NCBI GenBank assembly: GCA_965243395.1
Contig: CBDEUS010000002.1
Span: forward strand, 704,001 to 768,000
Source: Gammaproteobacteria bacterium
GTDB taxonomy: Bacteria > Pseudomonadota > Gammaproteobacteria > UBA4575
Length of the DNA stretch: 64,000 nucleotides
Direction: 5' to 3'
Shown here: piece by piece, positions 16,342 through 26,751 of the stretch
Position numbering within the stretch: the stretch's first letter is position 1
How the letters are laid out: every line of letters starts with the position of its first letter
The notes under the pieces: model-generated
The model's database searches: none
What the model was told of the DNA's origin: nothing
What the model saw: only the letters and a program-made list of their open reading frames with translations
Program-made: the position numbers and the translations under genes

Positions 16342-16758
16342 ATGCATGACAAAAATATAATTTCTGTATTCGAAAATGGCCCAATTCATATAAGGGGCGA
16401 TTTAGTACTTATCAATAGTGATGGCGATGTTATTGAAAAAACTGACGAATTATATTTATGCCGCTGTGGTAAATCGAATAACAAACCCTATTGTGATGGC
16501 GAGCATAAGAAAAATAATTTTTCGGAAGCTGGAAAATTTATTAAACCACCTGAGTCAGTAACGGATATTATTAATGAAGGTGTATTAGAAATTAAAGTTC
16601 AAGCAAACGGCCCTTTAATATTTAAAGGTACTGCTCTTATTCGAGATTGTGCAGAGAAAGAAATTTACCGAAAAGTAGGTGGACTATGTCGATGTGGGCA
16701 ATCTAATAACAGCCCTTTTTGTGATGGAACACATTCCAAAATAGAATTTGTAGCGTAA
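16342..16758 (+). CDS. Tandem CDGSH iron-sulfur domain protein
   Basis: LCRCGKSNNKPYCDGEH and LCRCGQSNNSPFCDGTH. Confidence 0.92.
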   Translation: MHDKNIISVFENGPIHIRGDLVLINSDGDVIEKTDELYLCRCGKSNNKPYCDGEHKKNNFSEAGKFIKPPESVTDIINEGVLEIKVQANGPLIFKGTALIRDCAEKEIYRKVGGLCRCGQSNNSPFCDGTHSKIEFVA

Positions 16759-16766
16759 TAGAGAAA

Positions 16767-17282
16767 TTAAAAGCCCTCGGTTGAGGTAAATAACCCTACT
16801 CGTAAATCTTTCGCCTTGTAAATTTCTTTATTGTCTACAGACATAATTCCGTCAGCAATTCCCATAACCGTACTTCTGCTAATTACTCTTTTAATATCGA
16901 GTCGATATTGTACGATTTTTGCAGTGGGTAGTACTTGACCCGTGAAACGGACTTCATTGACACCAAGTGCACGACCTTTTCCCGGATTACCTTGCCAGGC
17001 AATAAAAAAGCCTAATAGTTGCCACAAAGCATCTAAACCTAAACAGCCTGGCATAACAGGGTCCCCGGGGAAGTGGCAATCAAAAAACCATAAATCAGAT
17101 TTAATATCGAGCTCAGCCTCAATCATGCCTCGGTCATAACTTCCATTCTCATTTGAGATGTTAGTAATACGATCCATCATTAGCATGTTGGGCATGGGTA
17201 ATTGCGCATTACCCGGACCAAACATTTCACCTCTGCCACAAGCCAGTAGGTCTTCATAAGAAAAGGAATTTTTTTGCGTCAC
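16767..17282 (-). CDS. fabA: 3-hydroxydecanoyl-ACP dehydratase/isomerase
   Basis: [33 protein letters not shown] and GRALG. Confidence 0.97.
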
Positions 17283-17437: not shown

Positions 17438-18412
17438 TTATTGTTTAAAACGGCGATCTTGTTTTACACGATCGAGAATTAAATAAAGTTCACTAATGGT
17501 TTGTATGTAGTTTGCTTGGATTTCTTGAAGTACATCAAAGTAAGCAGCTGTTCCACTTCCCGTTACAACAATTTCAATACTATTGTTTAATTCTCGGCGT
17601 AGCTTGCGTAATTGATTTGGTAATAATGGATCATCAGCGGGTCGTGTTATACCAATCGCTACTAATTGTGCATCGCTTTGTTGTTGAGCAAAGATTATTT
17701 CGTCTACCGTTCCATACATACCTAAAAATATTGCATCCCAACCGTTTGATTTGCTAGCAGCAGCTAAGCGCAAGGCTGCAATATCACTTACAGGTCCCGC
17801 AGGTGAAGCGCAGATTAATTTATATTCAGATTCAACAAAGGGTTCATTCATAACCAAGTTTGAGAGAAATGCCCGTATAGAATAAATAGCTATTGCATAA
17901 TGAGTATCACGTAAGGCGCCGCGGCGACATTCGTCCTGAATGTGCGAAACCAGTGGTCGTAGCAAGTCTTCTAATAAAAAAATAATGCCTAACGATTTTG
18001 ATGCATCGCTAAGCGAATGATAAATGTCGTAACTATTGAACCGTTGTACTGCATCTAAACAGTCATCGAAATATTCCATCACGGATCCCGTGCTGGGACG
18101 CTGTTCTATTTTTGCGAGTGGTAAACGCGCTGCTGCGGATTCATCTTTATCAACTAACTCACGAAGTTTATCCATGGGTAAACTCGCAACATCGCCAATT
18201 CGACGCCCTGCTGAGGTCGCGCGCCGCAGCATAATAAGTTTTTCAACGTCACTATCGCTATACAATCTTCGAGCGTTACTGGCTCTTTCTGGTGTGACTA
18301 CTCCATAACGACGTTCCCACACACGTATGACATCCGCCGTAAGTCCGGTACGTCTGGCGACTACTTGAATGGGGTGCTCATGCACTAAAACGTTTGTCTG
18401 TTTGCCTGCCAC
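17438..18412 (-). CDS. MerR-family regulator with degenerate cobalamin-binding domain (CarH/LitR-like)
   Basis: MerR HTH (IRVWERRYG...RRLYS), four-helix cap and Rossmann-like domain. The Wx9EH and ExH B12 motifs are absent. Confidence 0.85.
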   Translation of the reverse strand: MAGKQTNVLVHEHPIQVVARRTGLTADVIRVWERRYGVVTPERASNARRLYSDSDVEKLIMLRRATSAGRRIGDVASLPMDKLRELVDKDESAAARLPLAKIEQRPSTGSVMEYFDDCLDAVQRFNSYDIYHSLSDASKSLGIIFLLEDLLRPLVSHIQDECRRGALRDTHYAIAIYSIRAFLSNLVMNEPFVESEYKLICASPAGPVSDIAALRLAAASKSNGWDAIFLGMYGTVDEIIFAQQQSDAQLVAIGITRPADDPLLPNQLRKLRRELNNSIEIVVTGSGTAAYFDVLQEIQANYIQTISELYLILDRVKQDRRFKQ

Positions 18413-18419
18413 GTTAATC

Positions 18420-18459
18420 TGTCATAGTTATGTCTAGCTTATTGTACCAATTTTGTCTG
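18420..18459. promoter_or_regulatory. Putative CarH-type operator (ACA repeats at ~11-bp period)
   Basis: Plus-strand TGT at 18420, 18431, 18443 and 18454 (minus strand ATGACA, TAGACA, GGTACA, CAGACA), immediately upstream of the MerR gene. Confidence 0.5.
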
Positions 18460-18706
18460 TTTAATAAAACATATCTAGGGCATCGTCATAGCTTTGTATT
18501 AGACAAATACCGGTCATATGAGAGGTAGCTGCTTGTGTCGTGGAGACCTTGGGTGCTATATTTATGTCATCGAAAGATCTTTATGCAAACCAAATATCCC
18601 CCATGATTTTGGTTTGTTAGGAAACAGGTATGTATATCTAGCCTATAGTCTGGATTGATACTTGTCGCAACCGTTAGGTTTTACCTGACATGAACTAGGA
18701 GCGAAC

Positions 18707-19855
18707 ATGAAGAAACTATTAATCAACGCGCGCTATTTTTTAGCCCCGTTTTTAATATTAGCGAGTTTATTCGGTGTATTAGCGGGGGGTCCATGGGTAT
18801 GGACCGGCGTATTACTACTGGGACTGGGTATCATCATAGACACCCTGACAACAGCACAAACACCCGGCGCGGGATTTGACGAAAACGGCGACACCAACGG
18901 CATCGTGCCCTTACTGAATGGCACCATGTACGGCATGCTGGCGGTATTTGTCCTTTTGCAACTGGCCCTTGCCTGGCGCATCTGGCAATACACCAACGGC
19001 GTCCCTGTTGTACCGGGGGGTGAAACCATCCTGGGCCTTGCGGTTCAAGACGGCATCACCGGCAGCCAACTTGTAGGCGCAGTACTATCCACCGGCATCT
19101 TTGCCGGCATCGGCATCATCTACGGACACGAACTGGCGCACACCAAAGGCTTCAGCTTCGTGATTGCGCGCTGGATGATGGCATTAAGTGGCAAAGCCCA
19201 CTTCTGCTACGCGCACGTATACAACCACCACCTAGAACTCGGTCACCAAGACGACCCAGCGACCGCGCCACGCGGGCGCAGCATGTACGCCCACTACCCA
19301 CTATCCGGGTTGGGGCAAAGCAAATTCCTCTTCATGATGGAAAAACAACGTCTTGAAAGACTAGGAGTACCCTTCCTATCCTGGCAAAACCGCTGGATCC
19401 GAGGCTACTTCATGGCATTGCCAACCGTACTTCTGTTCTGGTTCGTAGGCGGCTGGCTTGGCATGCTCTGCTTAGCGGGCGTATGGCTGATCTCCAACTT
19501 CGAACTCGAAGTCCTCAACTACCTTGAGCACTACGGATTGATTCGCGAGAAAGGCCAACCGATTGACTACCGTCATAGCTGGGACAACTCCACCGCGTTT
19601 ACCAGCTGGTTCTTTATCGAGATTGGTCGCCAGGCCGACCATCACGATCGCGGCGAGACCCACTTTTGGGAACTCGACGAAGTGGGTGCACCGAACTGCG
19701 GACGCGGCTACTTCACCCTGTTTGCATTAGGCTTATTGCCACCGGTGTTTCATGCCTACATGAAGCAACAGTTGGCGAAGTGGGATGACGAGATGGCCTC
19801 TGAGGGCGAACTTAAGATCGCGGATCAGATGAATAAACAGGCCGGGTACGCTTAA
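18707..19855 (+). CDS. XylM/AlkB-like integral-membrane diiron monooxygenase (fatty-acid desaturase superfamily)
   Basis: HELAH, HVYNHH, NYLEHYG and QADHH boxes, DPATAPRG and a XylM-like C-terminus. AGGAG RBS. Confidence 0.9.
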   Translation: MKKLLINARYFLAPFLILASLFGVLAGGPWVWTGVLLLGLGIIIDTLTTAQTPGAGFDENGDTNGIVPLLNGTMYGMLAVFVLLQLALAWRIWQYTNGVPVVPGGETILGLAVQDGITGSQLVGAVLSTGIFAGIGIIYGHELAHTKGFSFVIARWMMALSGKAHFCYAHVYNHHLELGHQDDPATAPRGRSMYAHYPLSGLGQSKFLFMMEKQRLERLGVPFLSWQNRWIRGYFMALPTVLLFWFVGGWLGMLCLAGVWLISNFELEVLNYLEHYGLIREKGQPIDYRHSWDNSTAFTSWFFIEIGRQADHHDRGETHFWELDEVGAPNCGRGYFTLFALGLLPPVFHAYMKQQLAKWDDEMASEGELKIADQMNKQAGYA

Positions 19856-19880: not shown

Positions 19881-19918
19881 AAAAACCCCTGACTCCTTGT
19901 GAGACGGGGGTTTTTTTT
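19881..19918 (+). terminator. Rho-independent terminator after the monooxygenase
   Basis: aaaaacccctgactccttgtgagacggggg followed by T8. Confidence 0.85.
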
Positions 19919-19965
19919 GCATTTAATCTTTCCAAAAACTAATAAATCTATATTAAGCTCTTTCA

Positions 19966-20691
19966 ATGGTTGAAAAGTTTGATCCCCAAAAAAATATGAC
20001 TAGGCAAGAATCATTAACTGATTCAGTAAGTTCGTTACAGTCGGGAGATGAACGTGCGTGGTTTGAAAATGAGCTTATAAAATTTCAACAACAATTACGT
20101 GATTTACCAAATCAGGCGAGTAACCTTGAACGTGCCAAACTTGAACTTGAGATAGCTGAAGTATTTATCGGCTTAAATCGTTTAAATGATGCGTGGGAAA
20201 GTGCACGACCACTTGTTGAAATATTTATTGTCGAGCAAGAATTCGAATTTGCTGTGCGAACGTGTCGAGTGCTATATCAAGCTAACCATGAATTATCGAT
20301 CGCTGCATTGGGACAGGGATGTTGGTTAGCGGTAACGTATCCAATAAATCCAACTTTATCAATTGAGATGTTGCATAACATTGTCGATGAAACTCCTGAC
20401 AATTCTGACGGTGCTGCTGTTGCTGCGATGGCAGCACAATACATTGCTGATATGCGTGGTGCAGAAGATCGTGAAAATTTAATGTTTCTTACCACTCAAA
20501 TTGTAGCTAAGGTTGCTAAACGTCATCGAAATATTGAGGATGAAGAATCTATCAAAATATGGATTGAGATTTTAGAACTCAATGATACGGACCAGTTATT
20601 CACACGCTTAGCAAAAGTTATTGACGCCATAACAGCAGATAACTGGTGGTTTAACCGAGACGAACTTCGAGCGCAATTACCTGTTAATTAA
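19966..20691 (+). CDS. Helical (TPR-like) hypothetical protein
   Basis: 241-aa all-alpha ORF with host-like codon usage and WLAVTYP and DETPDNSDGAAVAA segments. Confidence 0.7.
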   Translation: MVEKFDPQKNMTRQESLTDSVSSLQSGDERAWFENELIKFQQQLRDLPNQASNLERAKLELEIAEVFIGLNRLNDAWESARPLVEIFIVEQEFEFAVRTCRVLYQANHELSIAALGQGCWLAVTYPINPTLSIEMLHNIVDETPDNSDGAAVAAMAAQYIADMRGAEDRENLMFLTTQIVAKVAKRHRNIEDEESIKIWIEILELNDTDQLFTRLAKVIDAITADNWWFNRDELRAQLPVN

Positions 20692-20855
20692 GGAAAAATT
20701 ACCTACTTGTGACCCAGGTCGCATTTTTTTTTCCACTAGTCCACTAATCCCCTCCATTTACGCAAATTCGGCGGTTTTTACTGCGAATTTATAGCTATAT
20801 CTCATTATTGAGAGAGCGATTTCTGTACATTAATCGCACTGAGAGTTGGACTTTT

Positions 20856-21410
20856 ATGGAGAGCGTGGTGAGCAGACCAGCACAAGAGGTTGGCTTCACC
20901 CTAATTGAGTTAATGATTGTCGTGGTAATCGTGGCAATTTTTGTAACTGTGGGTGTGCCAAATTTTCGAAACTTGATAAGTGATAATCGCTTAGCAACAC
21001 AAGCGAATCGCCTTGTATCGTCTTTGCAATTGGCGCGTTCTGAAGCTCTTAAGTTACGAACTCCTGTTTCTGTATGTCGTTCAACGAATGGCTCTTCATG
21101 TGCAGGGGCTGGAAATTGGGAAACAGGTTGGTTGGTTTTTGTAGATACAAATGGCAACGGTGACGTTGATGGGGAACGAATTTTGTTAGCTAACGCTGCG
21201 CTGAGTGGCAGTAACACACTTCGTGCTACAGCTGCCCCCTTTACAGATTTCATAAATTATCAACCGAATGGTTTGCAAAGCACAACCAATATTGCCACGT
21301 ACAGAATTTGTGATGGAAACAATCCTGATGTTGATCAAGGTCGGCAAATAACAGTTTCAACTACAGGGCGAGTTCAGACAGATCGCGGTGGTTTAGCCGC
21401 TTGTCCTTAA
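20856..21410 (+). CDS. fimT: Type IV minor pilin FimT/GspH family
   Basis: G-FTLIELMIVVVI prepilin cleavage motif, ARSEA, W..GWLVFVD and TGRV. ATG at 20856 preferred. Confidence 0.9.
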   Translation: MESVVSRPAQEVGFTLIELMIVVVIVAIFVTVGVPNFRNLISDNRLATQANRLVSSLQLARSEALKLRTPVSVCRSTNGSSCAGAGNWETGWLVFVDTNGNGDVDGERILLANAALSGSNTLRATAAPFTDFINYQPNGLQSTTNIATYRICDGNNPDVDQGRQITVSTTGRVQTDRGGLAACP

Positions 21411-21430
21411 GTTAATAAGGCAAATATTTT

Positions 21431-22042
21431 ATGAATAACAGTGTAAAAACTTTTACCAAGCCACAACATAAAAAATTTATGTCTGGGTTATCTTTAATTG
21501 AGATATTAGTAACGGTAGTTGTGTTGTCAATTGGTTTGTTGGGCATAGCGGGAATGCAGGCATTTGGTATGCGTTACAGTCATGATTCTTATGCACGTAG
21601 TCAAGCAACTATGTTAGCGAACGAATTAATTGAACGTATGCATGCTAATCCAGATGCAGTCGCAAATGGTGATTACGATGATGCAGATAACAATGCTGCA
21701 ATTAATTGTAATAGCGTAACGAATGATCCTGCACATGTATCCAATCCAGCACCTGCGTGTATGGGTACAGAGGTTTGTACTGTTACGGAATTAGCACAAC
21801 TCGATGTGTTTAGAGCAAAGTGTGGACAATTCTTGGCTGGACCTGGTGCACTTGTTGGTGGCGCAGCAAATTTATTACCAAATGGAAATCTAGCAATAAC
21901 ATGTACAGATTCCAGCGTAGGTGTTGCACCCGCATGCGAAGGGGATAACACACGTACTGTTACCGTTAGTTGGCAAGATCCAGATCAAAAGGGTGACGCA
22001 ACACAGACGTTGCAAGTTCAAGTTAATGCGAGATTCCTATAA
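21431..22042 (+). CDS. pilV: Type IV minor pilin PilV
   Basis: G-LSLIEILV, IGLLGIAGMQ and RSQATMLANELIERMHAN. Confidence 0.92.
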   Translation: MNNSVKTFTKPQHKKFMSGLSLIEILVTVVVLSIGLLGIAGMQAFGMRYSHDSYARSQATMLANELIERMHANPDAVANGDYDDADNNAAINCNSVTNDPAHVSNPAPACMGTEVCTVTELAQLDVFRAKCGQFLAGPGALVGGAANLLPNGNLAITCTDSSVGVAPACEGDNTRTVTVSWQDPDQKGDATQTLQVQVNARFL

Positions 22043-22044
22043 AT

Positions 22045-22800
22045 ATGAATAATGTAAATATACATAAGCAATTTGGTCTCTCAATTGTTGAATTGATGAT
22101 CGCATTAGCATTGTCATTAGTTGTAATGCTAATCACGACAAGTATCTATGTAAGCAATAAACAAACGTATCGATTTTTGGACCAATATAGTCTGCTACAG
22201 GAAAATGGACGTTTTGCAATTTTCTTTTTACGTGAGCATATTTTACAGGCTGGTTTTCCACGCCAGTCAAATGTAAATCCGTTTCCAGTTGTGCCGGGTA
22301 ACAATACAGGTACAAACGGAAGTGACACGATAACAGTGCAATTTAGATCTGCTGTAGATTGTTTAAATGATGTACCTGCTGGTGCATTACCGTTGAGACT
22401 TACTCAGAACACGTTTCAGTTAAGTGCAAATAATGAATTGACATGCAATGGAAATGGCCTTGTGGGTGGCGTAGACCAACCTGCGCAAGCTTTAGTTGAT
22501 GGAATTGTAAATTTACAAGCTGAATACGGTGTGGATACGGATGCAGATGGAATTGCGAACAGCTATGCAAATTCTACTGTTGTTGAAGCTGGAACAATTG
22601 GGGGTGCCGGTCCGGATTGGGACAATGTCGTTTCTATACGTGTTGCTGTGCTGGTTGAAGGCGAGCCAAATACTTTAGATCAACCTCAAGCGATAACTTA
22701 TAACTTATTAGGCGTTCCAGACGCGTATAACGATCGCACACCAAGGCGTGTTTTCACAACAACCATTCCTTTGCGTAATCGCAATAAGACAATTATTTAG
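22045..22800 (+). CDS. pilW: Type IV minor pilin PilW
   Basis: G-LSIVELMIAL, LQENGRFA, LVDGIVNLQAEYGVDTDADG and RRVFTTTIPLRN. Confidence 0.92.
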   Translation: MNNVNIHKQFGLSIVELMIALALSLVVMLITTSIYVSNKQTYRFLDQYSLLQENGRFAIFFLREHILQAGFPRQSNVNPFPVVPGNNTGTNGSDTITVQFRSAVDCLNDVPAGALPLRLTQNTFQLSANNELTCNGNGLVGGVDQPAQALVDGIVNLQAEYGVDTDADGIANSYANSTVVEAGTIGGAGPDWDNVVSIRVAVLVEGEPNTLDQPQAITYNLLGVPDAYNDRTPRRVFTTTIPLRNRNKTII

Positions 22801-23325
22801 GTGGTAATCATGTTGAATTCAATTAGTAAACAAAATGGTGTTGTTTTAGTTGTTGGTTTGTTGATGTTGCTTGTCATTACGATCGTTGGTGTAACGGCAA
22901 TGAGTGACACCACGATGAATGAAAGAATGACATCAAATCATCAGTTTCAAACTTTAAGTTTTCAAGCTGCAGAATCGGCCATTCACGATAATTTTAACAT
23001 ACCATCGGTTTCACCATCTGTTACCGCAGTGAATTGGTTTATTGATCCTGCACCAACAAACTATAACGTAGATATCAAGAGTGGTACTCCGTTAGGTGTA
23101 CAAGCAGACGCCAGCATTCAATTTTGTGGTGAAGAATTACCTATGGGTTCAGGTTTTTGCAATGGTCTTTCAGCTGGTTGTGATATCGACCAGGTTTTTG
23201 ATGTTACGGGTGAAGGGCAAGTGAGTGCGCTCGGCACTCAAGAGCAACATTTACGTAGGGGAGCACGTGCCATGCTTAGTGCAGGGTTAGCATTTGATAC
23301 AACGAAATGTGATCAGGTGCCATAA
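22801..23325 (+). CDS. pilX: Type IV minor pilin PilX
   Basis: QNG-VVLVVGLLMLL (no Glu5), ERM and FQAAESAI. Confidence 0.88.
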   Translation: MVIMLNSISKQNGVVLVVGLLMLLVITIVGVTAMSDTTMNERMTSNHQFQTLSFQAAESAIHDNFNIPSVSPSVTAVNWFIDPAPTNYNVDIKSGTPLGVQADASIQFCGEELPMGSGFCNGLSAGCDIDQVFDVTGEGQVSALGTQEQHLRRGARAMLSAGLAFDTTKCDQVP

Positions 23326-23376
23326 ATCAAATAAAAGGATTTTTTTATGATATTTATTAATGAGAGTTGGAATTTT

Positions 23377-26300
23377 ATGAAAACGTTAACACAGAAAGTT
23401 AGTTTGCTTGCGTTTGTAAGCACAATTGTATTTATTAGTGGTTTTACAAACGTCTTTGCAGAAGACATAGAGATTTATGATCGCATTCAAACAGAACCTA
23501 ATGTTCTGTTTATTCTCGATCAATCTGAAAGTATGTTAGAGCTTGTTGGAAGCACAGGCTTAACTCGTGATCAAATTGTTAAGCAGGCATTTCAACAAGT
23601 CATGAGCCAAACATACAACAACCTTAATGTAGGGTTTATGGATTATGGTCGCAATAATGGTGCAGGTGTAGATCTTCCCGTTGCAGATGTTAACGAGCTT
23701 GCAAGAAATATTGAACCTAATGTTGTGAGCACTACCGAGACTTATGCATCAATGTTAAGTCGGTTTGTTGCAAATGTAGAAGGCCCTCAACCCAATGCAA
23801 AAACGGCAACTGTCGAAGCACTATTGGAAGCTGCCAAGTATTATCGTGGAGAAATTCTAGACAATAAAAGCCAGGGTTACCAAGGTCCTCCAGGTATATG
23901 GAATGATGGTGACTCCGATTATTGGGATTCTGTTACTGGTTCCGGAAATTCTCACTGGCGTGCTGCGGGTCCTCGCACATACTCAGGTGGTAGTTGGCAA
24001 TCTTCAAGTACACCAGGGCCTTATGGACCAACTTGTAAAACGACAAACATAGCAGGAGTATCACTACCTGTTTGTACTAATCCTTGGCCAGGTAGTTGTT
24101 GGAATGTGCCTTATCAACCACCGGTAAATAATCCATTTGTTCCGAGTCACCCTCATGGTTCTAAATGTATTGACCCACCTGGATACGGGTGTTTATTGTG
24201 GAATGTGGATAACACGGAGTGTGTAACATCGGGCTGCTTGGGTGGTACTGAACCTGCGTATTACCATACCCACGCAGCATCTACTACGCCTGAAGTGCCT
24301 GCACATACACGATGTAAAGAAACAGGTACATCAACTAGTACTGGTTTTAATGGAGATCGTTTCTATATCTCTCCGATTCAAACTGCATGCACCGAAAACT
24401 TTATTGTTTTGCTATCCGATGGCGGGCCAACTATTCTTGGTAATCACGAACAAACCTCGATAAAAAATATAGCGGGTATTTCATCATGTGAAAACTTGTC
24501 AGCGGCTGGTTTTAATGATCCTTCAATTCAACAAAAAGGTGTTTGTGGACCTGACTTAGTGAAAGCTTTAGCGAATGACGACCAAGCTTCTGGCGTCACG
24601 GGTATACAGACTATTAATACCTACACCGTTGGCTTTGATTTAGGAGCGGGTGCTTCAGAGGCAAAAGATTACCTACAGAAGCTAGCAACAGATGGCAATG
24701 GGCAATTTTTTGATGCAAATGGTGCTGGCGGTGTATCGGGCTTAGTAAATATTTTCCAAAATATTTTCAATTCCATTACACAAAAACCACTTACTGTGGC
24801 GCGTGTCGGATCGACTATTGATGTGAGTACATTGTCATCCAGTCGTGATGAGTTATATGTGCCTACGTTTGCAGCAGCGCCCGGTCAACCACGATGGCCT
24901 GGTAACTTAAAAGGCTACACGATGGATCCTGCGGGTTTCTTGAAAGGTCTGGATAATAATCCGGCATTTACGACCGCAGGAGATTTTAATCCTTCATCAA
25001 GAAGTTATTGGTCTGCATCTGCAGACGGCGGTAGCATTGAAAGCGGTGGTGTTGCGAGTCGATTATATCCATCAGTTCGAAATTTATATACTGATGATGG
25101 ACCAGGAACGTCACGAAGCTTTGAAGATTTGATCGCATCTAACTTTGATGAAAACGATGTTGCATTGTTTGGTTTAGTGTCTACTGGTGATGATGATGAT
25201 GATGAAGACATGGTACAAGAACATGTTGAATGGGTTCGTGGTGTGGATGTAGATGATGAAAATTCCGATGGTAGTAGCACTGACTCAAGGAATTTCATTG
25301 GTGATGCATTGCATACCGATCCAGTAGTTGCGAACTACGACGGATCTAAAACAGATCCTGTTGTGGGGGGTTCAATTGATCGTGTCGTTTACTTCATGAC
25401 TAATGAAGGTTTTATCCATGCGATTAATGTTACAGGAAACACTGATACGACCGGAGGTACTGAGTTATTTGCTTATATGCCGAGTGACTTGTTACCTAAT
25501 ACGGATCTTTTACGTAGAGATGTGGGTGGAGGTGCAAAAGTATATGGATTAGACGGCCCATTAACGTTACATCAAGTAGGTGGTCTGACAAATGTTGCAG
25601 GCAAGAAATATTTGTATTTTGGAATGCGACGCGGTGGCATGAATTATTATGCAATGGATGTAACCGATCCGCTTTCACCATCACTCATGTGGGTTATTGA
25701 GGGTGGTACAGGCGACTTCAAAGAAATGGCTCAGTCTTGGTCTAAACCAATTGTTACTAATGTAGATGTTGGTGGAACCAAAACATTAGCACTCGTGTTT
25801 GGTGGAGGTTACGATACTACACAGGACTCTGCGACAACTTATACTGCGGACATTCAAGGCCGCGCAATTTATATAGTTGACGCAATAACTGGAGACAAAA
25901 TTTGGTCTGCAGGACCAAACACTCTAACGCCTAATAGTCCAGATACACACAATTTAGATTTGGCATTAGCAAATGGTATCGCTGGTGATGTATCAGTAAT
26001 TGATTTGGATAATGATACTTATGCGGACCGAATTTATTTTGGTGATATAGGCGGTTCAATCTGGCGTATCGATATTCAAGGTGATTTAAATGGTTTGCCT
26101 GGATTTTTAAATGATTATTCAGGTTATGAATTTGCTAATTTACATGGCAACTCTACGACTGATAATAGACGCTTCTTTGGCAGACCTATTGCAGCCTTGA
26201 CACAAAACGGAAAGCTTGCGGTATCAATTGGATCAGGACATCGGTCCCATCCATTGGATCCGAATGTGCAAGATCGTTTTTATACGCTATATGATCCTAA

Positions 26301-26751
26301 TGTAAATGGTGTTCCAACTTCTGCACCTAGCGCTGTTACAGAAAGTAATCTGCAAGATATCACCGGATTCACATCTGGTTATACAAACTCATCAATGGCA
26401 GGCTGGAGATTTGATCTTGGAGTAGGTGAAAAAGTTTTCAATGAAGCGAGTGTTTTACGTGGAGAAATCTTTTTCAGTACTTATGTTCCACCAGCGACTG
26501 TATGTAGTAATGATCCAAATGGTTCAAGATTATTTGTCTTGGATCTCGAGGGTAATGCTTCAAGAGACTTAGATGGAGATGTAAGTAACGGTAAAGATTT
26601 CTTTATTACAGTAAATAATTTTGGAATACTTCCGAAGATGGCTCTTCATTATGGCTCAACAGGTCAAGTAAGGAGTGTATTTTTACCTAATGTTGGTAAT
26701 GTTTATTCAACTGGAATACTGGAAGATCGCTTCTGGACGAATAATCCTTAA
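23377..26751 (+). CDS. pilY1: Type IV pilus adhesin PilY1/PilC
   Basis: Signal peptide, vWA MIDAS (LDQSESM), WPGNLK, YGLDG, FGMRRGG, FGGGYD and Ca-binding-like DLDNDTYAD. ATG at 23377 preferred. Confidence 0.92.
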   Translation: MKTLTQKVSLLAFVSTIVFISGFTNVFAEDIEIYDRIQTEPNVLFILDQSESMLELVGSTGLTRDQIVKQAFQQVMSQTYNNLNVGFMDYGRNNGAGVDLPVADVNELARNIEPNVVSTTETYASMLSRFVANVEGPQPNAKTATVEALLEAAKYYRGEILDNKSQGYQGPPGIWNDGDSDYWDSVTGSGNSHWRAAGPRTYSGGSWQSSSTPGPYGPTCKTTNIAGVSLPVCTNPWPGSCWNVPYQPPVNNPFVPSHPHGSKCIDPPGYGCLLWNVDNTECVTSGCLGGTEPAYYHTHAASTTPEVPAHTRCKETGTSTSTGFNGDRFYISPIQTACTENFIVLLSDGGPTILGNHEQTSIKNIAGISSCENLSAAGFNDPSIQQKGVCGPDLVKALANDDQASGVTGIQTINTYTVGFDLGAGASEAKDYLQKLATDGNGQFFDANGAGGVSGLVNIFQNIFNSITQKPLTVARVGSTIDVSTLSSSRDELYVPTFAAAPGQPRWPGNLKGYTMDPAGFLKGLDNNPAFTTAGDFNPSSRSYWSASADGGSIESGGVASRLYPSVRNLYTDDGPGTSRSFEDLIASNFDENDVALFGLVSTGDDDDDEDMVQEHVEWVRGVDVDDENSDGSSTDSRNFIGDALHTDPVVANYDGSKTDPVVGGSIDRVVYFMTNEGFIHAINVTGNTDTTGGTELFAYMPSDLLPNTDLLRRDVGGGAKVYGLDGPLTLHQVGGLTNVAGKKYLYFGMRRGGMNYYAMDVTDPLSPSLMWVIEGGTGDFKEMAQSWSKPIVTNVDVGGTKTLALVFGGGYDTTQDSATTYTADIQGRAIYIVDAITGDKIWSAGPNTLTPNSPDTHNLDLALANGIAGDVSVIDLDNDTYADRIYFGDIGGSIWRIDIQGDLNGLPGFLNDYSGYEFANLHGNSTTDNRRFFGRPIAALTQNGKLAVSIGSGHRSHPLDPNVQDRFYTLYDPNVNGVPTSAPSAVTESNLQDITGFTSGYTNSSMAGWRFDLGVGEKVFNEASVLRGEIFFSTYVPPATVCSNDPNGSRLFVLDLEGNASRDLDGDVSNGKDFFITVNNFGILPKMALHYGSTGQVRSVFLPNVGNVYSTGILEDRFWTNNP

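Follow-up and report, generated by a model that had tools for sequence, protein, structure and literature searches.

Introduction

In the alkane monooxygenase FtAlkB, two irons are held by nine histidines and one glutamate (PMC10113152; PMC10110569). The structural account of this enzyme assigns His171, Glu271, His272, His311 and His315 to one of the irons, Fe2, and places His311 first in the third histidine box (PMC10113152). XylM, known from pWW53, hydroxylates methyl groups. Here, we describe a related gene in a stretch of 64,000 nucleotides from a gammaproteobacterial genome (GCA_965243395.1, contig CBDEUS010000002.1, positions 704,001 to 768,000), referred to below as the window. The gene, an open reading frame of 382 codons with an ATG start, lies at 18707..19855 on the forward strand, and its product is a XylM/AlkB-like membrane diiron monooxygenase in which glutamine takes the place of the first histidine of the third box; we call such genes and proteins Gln-type. 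The product is predicted, from its sequence relationships and partner genes, to be the oxygen-activating membrane subunit of a multicomponent monooxygenase of a XylM-related lineage.

Among the sulfur gases of biological origin in the sea, dimethylsulfide (DMS) is the principal one. Where it treats the conversion of DMS to methanethiol, a review of June 2026 gives DmoA as the sole enzyme (PMC13360808). The account of DMS metabolism in Methylophaga thiooxydans describes growth on DMS without dmoA or ddh and leaves the first DMS enzyme unidentified; M. sulfidovorans is listed there as having mtoX and lacking dmoA and ddh, like M. thiooxydans (PMC6548844). Our literature search found no paper linking dmoA, methanethiol oxidase and alkB. 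We put forward the Gln-type genes and their partners as a candidate enzyme family and gene set for the step from DMS to methanethiol. Since the family is routinely named alkane 1-monooxygenase, its true substrate alters how ocean 'alkB' surveys are to be read.

A glutamine-box subfamily related to XylM

The window protein matches FA_desaturase (PF00487) alone in Pfam (6.4e-29), with no cytochrome b5 domain in the same scan, and an NCBIfam scan gave no match. All the motifs that had been read from the letters in the original prediction, and the Gln codon at 19631, were confirmed in the open reading frame and its codons. They comprise, on the forward strand, His box 1, HELAH (GHELAHTK; H141 and H145; 19127..19141), His box 2, HVYNHH (AHVYNHH; H170, H174 and H175; 19214..19231), the NYLEHYG motif (E274 and H275; 19517..19537) and box 3, EIGRQADHH (19619..19645), in which Gln309 is encoded by CAG at 19631-19633 and H312 and H313 are retained. 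In a 40-sequence alignment, H141, E142, H145, box 2 and N271, H275, Y276 and G277 are invariant, and E274 is nearly so.

The only solved structures related in sequence (HMMER) are two of AlkB (8sbb, E 1.3e-26; 8f6t, E 2.9e-24), and in both, Gln309 is aligned opposite the first His of LQRHSDHH. The AlphaFold model of the protein (predicted local distance difference test [pLDDT], 92.1) matches solely AlkB 8f6t (TMq 0.76) and 8sbb (TMq 0.74) in the PDB at E <= 0.001; desaturases, SCD-type or other, are not among these matches. Of the nine His ligands of AlkB, eight are retained together with the Glu, the first His of box 3 having become Gln309; Glu271 and His272 of FtAlkB, the counterparts of E274 and H275, are described as binding Fe2 (PMC10113152). 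As judged by alignment, Gln309 would stand in place of an Fe2-ligand histidine, matching FtAlkB His311 (PMC10113152), in keeping with the altered iron coordination that had been proposed. A fixed His-to-Gln ligand in an AlkB-fold enzyme would be a natural experiment in nitrogen-rich diiron chemistry. Our literature search found nothing on glutamine in the histidine box of AlkB or alkane monooxygenases.

Among the matches listed, RQ[AG]DHH is present in 120/120 close homologues (72-91% identity). It recurs in 116 of 117 further homologues found from a more distant member, the remaining one being off the search pattern. Across 121 distinct DNA contexts of related loci, the site reads CAA in 65 and CAG in 50, so that Gln is retained via both codons in 115/115 Gln-clade contexts, and CAC or CAT is limited to 6 His-type sister sequences. 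Because the homologues share RQ[AG]DHH and both codons occur, the glutamine is neither chance nor a sequencing error, and the alternative of a singleton change is ruled out. In a protein library clustered at 50% identity, 2,229 proteins matched at E <= 0.001. The best 150 comprise 7 with Gln (identity to the query 62% or more), 115 with His (39% or less) and 28 without a box recognized by the pattern. A His-type sister group, drawn from relatives of the window's genome and from metagenomes, is 51-54% identical to the query and carries the motifs HEIGH, HIYDHH and [EG]IGRHSDHH.

The phylogeny called for by the original prediction was run with IQ-TREE on a chosen subset of 48 rows (17 Gln-type and 5 sister-group sequences, 6 references with names and 20 of the 91 full-length His-type representatives). 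It gave the topology (XylM clade,(His-sister,Gln clade)), with supports of 96/86, 100/100 and 100/99. The Gln clade is monophyletic (100/99), as is the XylM clade (100/100), and branches with supports of 99-100 split the Pseudomonas and Rhodococcus AlkB references from the window protein, leaving rubredoxin-type AlkB far outside the Gln clade. A quick tree of 114 rows agrees with this topology. These results support a single origin of the glutamine, defining a distinct subfamily: QADHH marks a clade, as had been anticipated, and the protein falls outside both the AlkB and XylM clades, being neither an ordinary AlkB nor a XylM.

Gln-type homologues at E <= 1e-100 number more than 1,000, are common in marine metagenomes and are labeled 'alkane 1-monooxygenase' by their sources. 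Within the order to which the window's genome belongs, the gene is a near-universal core gene (45/47 high-quality genomes), with 1-4 copies per genome. Contigs from RNA libraries (4 runs from 3 studies) span portions of the coding sequence in relatives but no flanks; they do not distinguish the two loci or establish transcription.

Redox partners and gene clusters

The window's genome (2.58 Mb in two contigs, C1 and C2) has six FA_desaturase matches and, besides the window gene, holds a near-identical twin copy and a third Gln-type paralogue. We compared 80 related loci from public genomes. In 47, the setting is that of the window gene (type A), with fabA and/or a MerR-like regulator gene divergent from the monooxygenase gene and a 241-aa gene following it; the regulator is present in 38 of them. 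In 20 others (type B), msrB precedes the monooxygenase gene, and GST-like (glutathione S-transferase-like) and reductase genes lie farther downstream. Neither setting is found in the remaining 13.

Three genes lie 3' of the twin copy, encoding a 59-aa ferredoxin (PF06902 Fer4_19, 62 bits), a GST-like protein and a XylA-like reductase. Neither a rubredoxin nor a reductase gene lies beside the window copy, but the view that the gene has no reductase holds at that locus only. The ferredoxin is present in 34 other loci (one match partial). Genomes with a single type-A monooxygenase keep the msrB-ferredoxin-GST-reductase cluster intact elsewhere, which places the insertion of the second copy between msrB and ferredoxin. 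The reductase, 1.2 kb downstream of the twin, is of the [2Fe-2S]-FAD-NAD type (Fer2, FAD_binding_6 and NAD_binding_1) and shares 40% identity with the protein in the XylA position after xylM on pWW53 (349 aa aligned, E 3e-90). No rubredoxin gene occurs at any of the genome's three Gln-type loci; the sole PF00301 match is at C2:1132062, about 410 kb away.

The GST-like protein matches the GST_N/C Pfam families. Its Cys18 is kept in 26/26 aligned orthologues, and Lys23-Cys24 is at least 90% conserved over 34 sequences of three GST-like types. Its model (pLDDT 93.1) has its best TM-scores with human GST Omega 1 (TMq 0.76-0.77). A complex prediction for the hydroxylase and the GST-like protein scored 0.01 (mark 0.32) and gave no answer. 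A literature search joining xylene monooxygenase, GST and sponge symbionts found nothing.

The third paralogue (C2:664848-666032) is 61% identical to the window protein and also carries EIGRQADHH. It belongs to a tight GST-GST-monooxygenase unit (C2:663375-666032; L088:6375-9029) that adjoins a Crp/Fnr gene and cbb3-oxidase genes; of 4 additional genomes examined, 3 share the arrangement of the unit beside the Crp/Fnr gene, and the fourth has it rearranged. A distant truncated globin and a cytochrome c are encoded about 4 kb upstream of the unit. In two genomes (L107:5989-9156 and L108:3840-7134), another Gln-type paralogue, 77-79% identical, comes after genes for an LpxR-family outer-membrane protein and a 200-aa protein with no assigned function.

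Five loci were read from other families (L182 to L186), all with the Gln box. L182 runs two-component regulator, monooxygenase, truncated globin, reductase and SBP56 (the methanethiol oxidase family); L183 repeats this order without SBP56 and adds a MEDS-domain regulator. In L184, the order is monooxygenase, globin, ferredoxin, GST, reductase, GST and GST, and in L186, monooxygenase, globin, GST and reductase. In L185, a SCO1/SenC gene diverges from monooxygenase, ferredoxin, GST, reductase, an unknown gene and SBP56. Overall, a reductase gene follows the Gln-type gene in 5/5 of these distant loci, so the original picture of a hydroxylase without a reductase does not extend to other families; truncated globin is found in 4/5, GSTs in 3/5 and SBP56 (at distances within 1.9-4.7 kb) in 2/5. 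Type-B copies in 12 additional loci are likewise followed by the globin gene. Genes for alcohol and aldehyde dehydrogenases, which the XylM reference loci carry, are absent beside every annotated Gln-type locus.

Co-occurrence was scored across 300 evenly sampled gammaproteobacterial genomes, a further genome having proved unscorable. The Gln-type gene is present at E <= 1e-80 in 11 of them, from 8 families. The GST homologue occurs in 9/11 carriers and in 0/289 others. SBP56 was found in 30 genomes, namely 11/11 carriers and 19/289 others, the latter including the unpublished genomes G176 and G320. Apart from the five loci read above, two of the sampled genomes have SBP56 at 17.6 kb from the Gln-type gene. 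The window's own genome encodes an SBP56 protein at C1:658288-659496 (156 bits against a cut-off of 34), with SCO1/SenC homologues on its flanks. It also encodes two Fae proteins (221 and 198 bits) and, 11 kb upstream of the twin, an orthologue of the globin.

Published expression data

The published expression data for DMS-grown M. thiooxydans show a comparable set of genes, among which those for a desaturase-domain protein, an NAD-binding oxidoreductase and the globin HbN are induced 29-136-fold on DMS (PMC6548844). In Table S6 of that paper, values for DMS versus methanol are 17,350 and 37 for the first copy of mtoX, 4,064 and 20 for the second copy, 1,359 and 10 for the 'Fatty acid desaturase domain protein' (226; MDMS009_226; 136-fold), 618 and 12 for 'Oxidoreductase, NAD-binding domain' (61), 601 and 21 for HbN (199) and 454 and 12 for Sco1/SenC (140) (PMC6548844). 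These are the gene types that cluster with the Gln-type gene. Moreover, Methylophaga sulfidovorans, which was isolated on DMS, encodes a Gln-type protein that NCBI names 'fatty acid desaturase' and that is 68% identical to the window's.

In the ocean, according to a 2026 study, 'alkB' expression is highest in an uncultured gammaproteobacterial order, of which one metagenome-assembled genome (MAG) expresses two copies (PMC13488336). SBP56 is reported in metaproteomes of order GCA-002705445 (PMC8371827). The order concerned in both papers is GCA-002705445, which is possibly but not certainly that of the window's genome.

Proposed function and alternatives

The most likely reaction of the enzyme is, in our view, methyl hydroxylation of DMS or a close volatile methyl-chalcogenide, feeding methanethiol oxidase, a reading that we consider to have about an even chance. 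The clustering and co-occurrence with SBP56, together with the DMS-induced homologous gene types of M. thiooxydans, lend contextual support to DMS as the substrate. A wider proposal would make the Gln-box family the missing, widespread marine DMS monooxygenase, with an 8-His/1-Gln diiron site and with globin, ferredoxin, Cys-type GST-like and XylA-like reductase partners; this we advance tentatively, with chances that fall slightly short of even. If it is true, many of the 'alkB' genes in ocean hydrocarbon-cycle surveys are sulfur-cycle genes.

A possible pathway, built from the partner genes, would pass electrons from NAD(P)H through the XylA-like [2Fe-2S]-FAD reductase, and probably the 59-aa Fer4_19 ferredoxin, to the diiron site, where O2 would be activated and a methyl group of DMS hydroxylated. 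The hemithioacetal product would split spontaneously into methanethiol and formaldehyde. Methanethiol would then pass to the SBP56-type methanethiol oxidase and formaldehyde to the Fae/tetrahydromethanopterin route encoded by the genome. The Cys-type GST-like proteins might deal with thiol, mixed-disulfide or sulfane products, and the truncated globin may handle O2 or sulfide. Gene conversion would hold the two near-identical copies alike, with the window copy under a CarH-like MerR regulator and the twin beside the redox genes.

Several points weigh against a role in DMS oxidation. The carrier genomes are kin, being confined to 8 families, so that the co-occurrence counts overstate independence, and SBP56 adjoins the gene in a minority of the distant loci (2/5); in the window's own genome, 98 kb separate it from the twin, the nearer of the two copies. 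Furthermore, the carriers' SBP56 type scores only 138-175 bits on the Pfam model, and its substrate is assumed, while a second type scoring 580-700 bits is found in 7 other sampled genomes; one further sampled genome has two SBP56 fragments, of 339 and 233 bits. The window's genome is without ribulose monophosphate (RuMP) pathway hexulose-phosphate synthase, pyrroloquinoline quinone (PQQ)-dependent methanol dehydrogenase and glutathione-dependent formaldehyde dehydrogenase. The homology of MDMS009_226 to the Gln clade is presumed from annotation, not sequence. The M. thiooxydans authors suggest that gene 226 serves lipid homeostasis during H2O2 stress and that gene 61 encodes its reductase, and they report no detection of DMS monooxygenase activity in extracts after growth on DMS (PMC6548844). 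The link of the sister subfamily to an ArsM-like gene, described below, points to a wider range of methylated substrates, and the reading leaves the part played by the GST-like proteins unexplained.

Autotrophy and classical methylotrophy were considered separately for this organism and set aside, as the genome encodes no RuBisCO, hexulose-phosphate synthase, PQQ methanol dehydrogenase or class III formaldehyde dehydrogenase.

The AlkB fold and the position sister to XylM, together with the XylA-like reductase, would also suit a hydroxylase of hydrocarbons, whether alkanes, alkenes such as isoprene or methyl-aromatics, with the GST-like proteins detoxifying epoxides or other reactive products. 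The sources' name for the homologues speaks for this, and so does the ocean 'alkB' study, in whose account such uncultured gammaproteobacterial orders count as alkane consumers (PMC13488336). We nevertheless find it improbable: the annotated loci, unlike those of XylM, have no alcohol or aldehyde dehydrogenase beside them, the gene is near-universal in its order and not part of a patchy catabolic island, one iron ligand is changed, and the strict co-occurrence with SBP56 would be left aside.

A similarly low probability attaches to oxidation of another methylated chalcogen or metalloid (methylarsenicals, dimethylselenide or dimethyl disulfide) or to heteroatom oxygenation of DMS to dimethyl sulfoxide. 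Here, the evidence comes first from the His-type sister gene, which lies directly upstream of an ArsM-like methyltransferase gene in 6 of the 11 loci covering the spot (L102:5545-8089, L104:2663-4745, L112, L115, L116 and L121), L102 having in addition a divergent ArsR-family regulator gene. The other five loci are without the methyltransferase, which scores 233-250 bits on NF008823, below the cut-off of 263. Human GST Omega 1, the closest fold to the GST-like partner, acts as a methylarsonate reductase, and the msrB neighbor fits the same idea. However, the ArsM link belongs to the His-type sister and not to the Gln clade, no ArsM homologue is encoded in the window's genome (the best match has 22% identity, E 1.4e-6), and the co-occurrence with the methanethiol oxidase family suits methanethiol as the product. 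A literature search found nothing joining arsM and alkane 1-monooxygenase.

Would the enzyme act on the cell's own membrane lipids, as a hydroxylase or desaturase within an oxidative-stress response? A QxxHH box is otherwise typical of front-end desaturases, as the original prediction noted and as is stated in print (PMC4404247), the M. thiooxydans authors understood their DMS-induced 'fatty acid desaturase' in this sense (PMC6548844), and fabA, msrB and GST-like genes are neighbors, as is an LpxR-family gene for one paralogue in 2 loci. Against this stands a fold that matches AlkB alone and not SCD-type desaturases, along with a dedicated XylA-like reductase and ferredoxin typical of xenobiotic oxygenases; the adjacency of fabA and msrB is confined to related lineages and may be inherited synteny, and the clustering of SBP56 and globin is left unexplained. 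We rate this reading as quite unlikely. Finally, that the replacement of a metal ligand invariant in AlkB disabled the enzyme and left a non-catalytic relic is hardly credible, given a glutamine kept through both codons in all Gln-clade contexts, the invariance of all other ligands, the 1-4 copies per genome in concerted evolution and the RNA-library contigs of relatives that cover the coding sequence.

Gene conversion between the two copies

The window gene and its twin differ by a single mismatch in 1,152 bp (blastn; 18704..19855 on the forward strand against C1:559375-560526). The tract of identity begins 3 bp before the ATG and stops at the stop codon, with unrelated flanks. In 14 other genomes with both settings, DNA identity between the two coding sequences is 97.9-100%, and the shared tract extends from 9-14 bp ahead of the ATG to 1-100 bp past the stop; orthologues between genomes show only 70-94% protein identity. 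Because the copies within a genome are so much more alike than orthologues, these data indicate that the two copies undergo concerted evolution by gene conversion. An exception is the pair L081/L082, from a MAG, which is 86% identical and in which both copies are cut by contig ends. In six metagenome contigs (L120, L125, L129, L132, L135 and L144), flanks of types A and B are joined across the coding sequence; these are likely assembly chimeras at the identical 1.15-kb repeat, although true recombinants are possible.

The window coding sequence has 54% G+C and a third-position G+C content (GC3) of 0.65, in a genome of 38.6% G+C and a GC3 background of 0.296 +/- 0.045 (991 open reading frames of 300 aa or more). 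Every outlier is a duplicated gene, and the three dispersed pairs that stay near-identical in this genome are all extreme in GC3. Ranks 1 and 2 are held by the window gene pair (0.652 and 0.656), and ranks 3 and 4 by the tuf pair (C2:1187384-1188574 and C2:1203923-1205113; 99.6% identical over 1,204 bp; 0.611 and 0.614). A pair of binding-protein genes (C1:591754-593103 and C2:1003823-1005172; 99.9-100% over 1,322-1,377 bp) has a GC3 of 0.479. The G+C excess thus appears to track intragenomic conversion, GC-biased gene conversion being the simplest reading. Horizontal transfer was set aside as the cause, since the genome's other duplicated pairs share the anomaly, and so was high expression, since the single-copy ribosomal protein genes, rpoBC and fusA are ordinary (0.20-0.37).

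Other G+C-rich features are present in this genome. Both contigs end in long G+C-rich tandem arrays with periods of 387 and 318 bp, common to both contigs and reverse-complemented (C1:1-9750, C1:1272251-1279210, C2:1-10750 and C2:1292001-1299313), inside giant open reading frames for repeat proteins; the assembly is probably one chromosome broken at terminal tandem arrays. Another G+C-rich island, at C2:1220678-1222984, is a 768-aa open reading frame of 294-bp repeats (99.5-100% identical).

Neighborhood and regulation of the window copy

Upstream of the window gene, at 17438..18412 on the reverse strand, lies the divergent gene for a MerR-family regulator of CarH/LitR-like architecture (MerR_1, 6.5e-12, 45.8 bits). 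Its B12-binding domain scores 30.6 bits, below the cut-off of 32.1, and the CarH model matches the N terminus only. The C-terminal domain has no His conserved among 56 orthologues, including at the place where we take the canonical cobalamin-ligand motif of CarH/LitR-type regulators to lie; light sensing through adenosylcobalamin is therefore not supported. For this genome, the absence of an SQS_PSY match likewise led us to reject carotenoid or hopanoid modification under a light regulator.

Direct repeats of 11 bp are the binding sites of CarH-type repressors. Adjoining the regulator gene, at 18420..18457 (no strand assigned), four operator-like direct repeats TGTC/TGTA are spaced by 11-12 bp; they are invariant in 10/10 aligned type-A intergenic regions, and the pattern occurs once in the whole genome. 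An extended -10-like element, TGnTATAnT, follows at 18554..18563 on the forward strand and is also invariant in 10/10 aligned loci (alignment columns T142, G143, T145, A146, T147, A148 and T150), having been missed by a simple promoter scan.

Downstream, a terminator-like hairpin with a T-run was found by consensus scan on the forward strand, at 19891-19912 within a span of 19891..19920 past the stop codon; such a scan gives 3 sites in the region against 2.0 expected from shuffles and is weak alone. The terminator described earlier corresponds to this hairpin; the picture of an orphan, monocistronic gene was incomplete in view of the twin coding sequence and the third paralogue. The next gene (19966..20691, forward strand), of 241 aa, follows the type-A copy in many loci; it has no Pfam or NCBIfam match, and an atlas search returned hypothetical proteins and weak TPR leads. 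On the other side, fabA (16767..17282, reverse strand; TIGR01749, 293 bits) is a conserved type-A neighbor that we treat as context only.

Two further features lie nearby. At 16342-16758, 2 kb upstream and beyond fabA and the regulator gene, a protein with two CDGSH iron-sulfur domains is encoded, a placement conserved among closer relatives only. At 20808-26751, starting about 120 bp past the 241-aa gene, four open reading frames of 174-251 aa are followed by one of 1,134 aa; three of the four open with a hydrophobic stretch and a type IV pilin-like (I/V)E(L/I) motif, and, by eye, the run resembles a cluster of type IV minor pilins together with a PilY1-like protein.

Comparison with known systems

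The DMS-induced set of M. thiooxydans resembles the Gln-type clusters in gene types: MDMS009_226 is induced together with an NAD-binding oxidoreductase, HbN, Sco1/SenC and mtoX. Its homology to the Gln-type protein is presumed, and the role discussed by its authors is lipid homeostasis (PMC6548844). With DmoAB, the FMNH2 (reduced flavin mononucleotide)-dependent DMS monooxygenase, the likeness is confined to the proposed reaction, a conversion of DMS into methanethiol and formaldehyde ahead of methanethiol oxidase; the protein families are unrelated, the window protein matching FA_desaturase alone. Front-end desaturases share with the window's QADHH a Gln for the first His of the third box. 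However, the cytochrome b5 fusion and the desaturase fold of these enzymes are absent, and the window system has a separate ferredoxin-type reductase.

AlkB (8f6t and 8sbb) has in common with the window protein the six-helix fold, eight of nine His ligands, the Glu and the NYxEHYG motif, at 24-25% identity in the fold alignment, and lies on the outgroup side of the tree. Its nine-His set is incomplete in the window protein, where Gln corresponds to the Fe2 ligand His311, and its rubredoxin donor, fused or adjacent, has no counterpart at the Gln-type loci of the genome.

XylM of pWW53 is the nearest named clade to the Gln-type gene (96/86), at 28-32% identity over the full length. The two systems share a type of partner reductase, that of the Gln-type system being 40% identical to the protein in the XylA position. 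The window protein is sister to the XylM clade, not inside it, and its third box reads IGRQADHH, against ITNHINHH in XylM. The XylM loci include benzyl-alcohol and benzaldehyde dehydrogenase genes, which are missing from the annotated Gln-type loci; in turn, the Gln-type clusters carry partners additional to those of XylM, namely, ferredoxin, GST-like proteins, truncated globin and SBP56.

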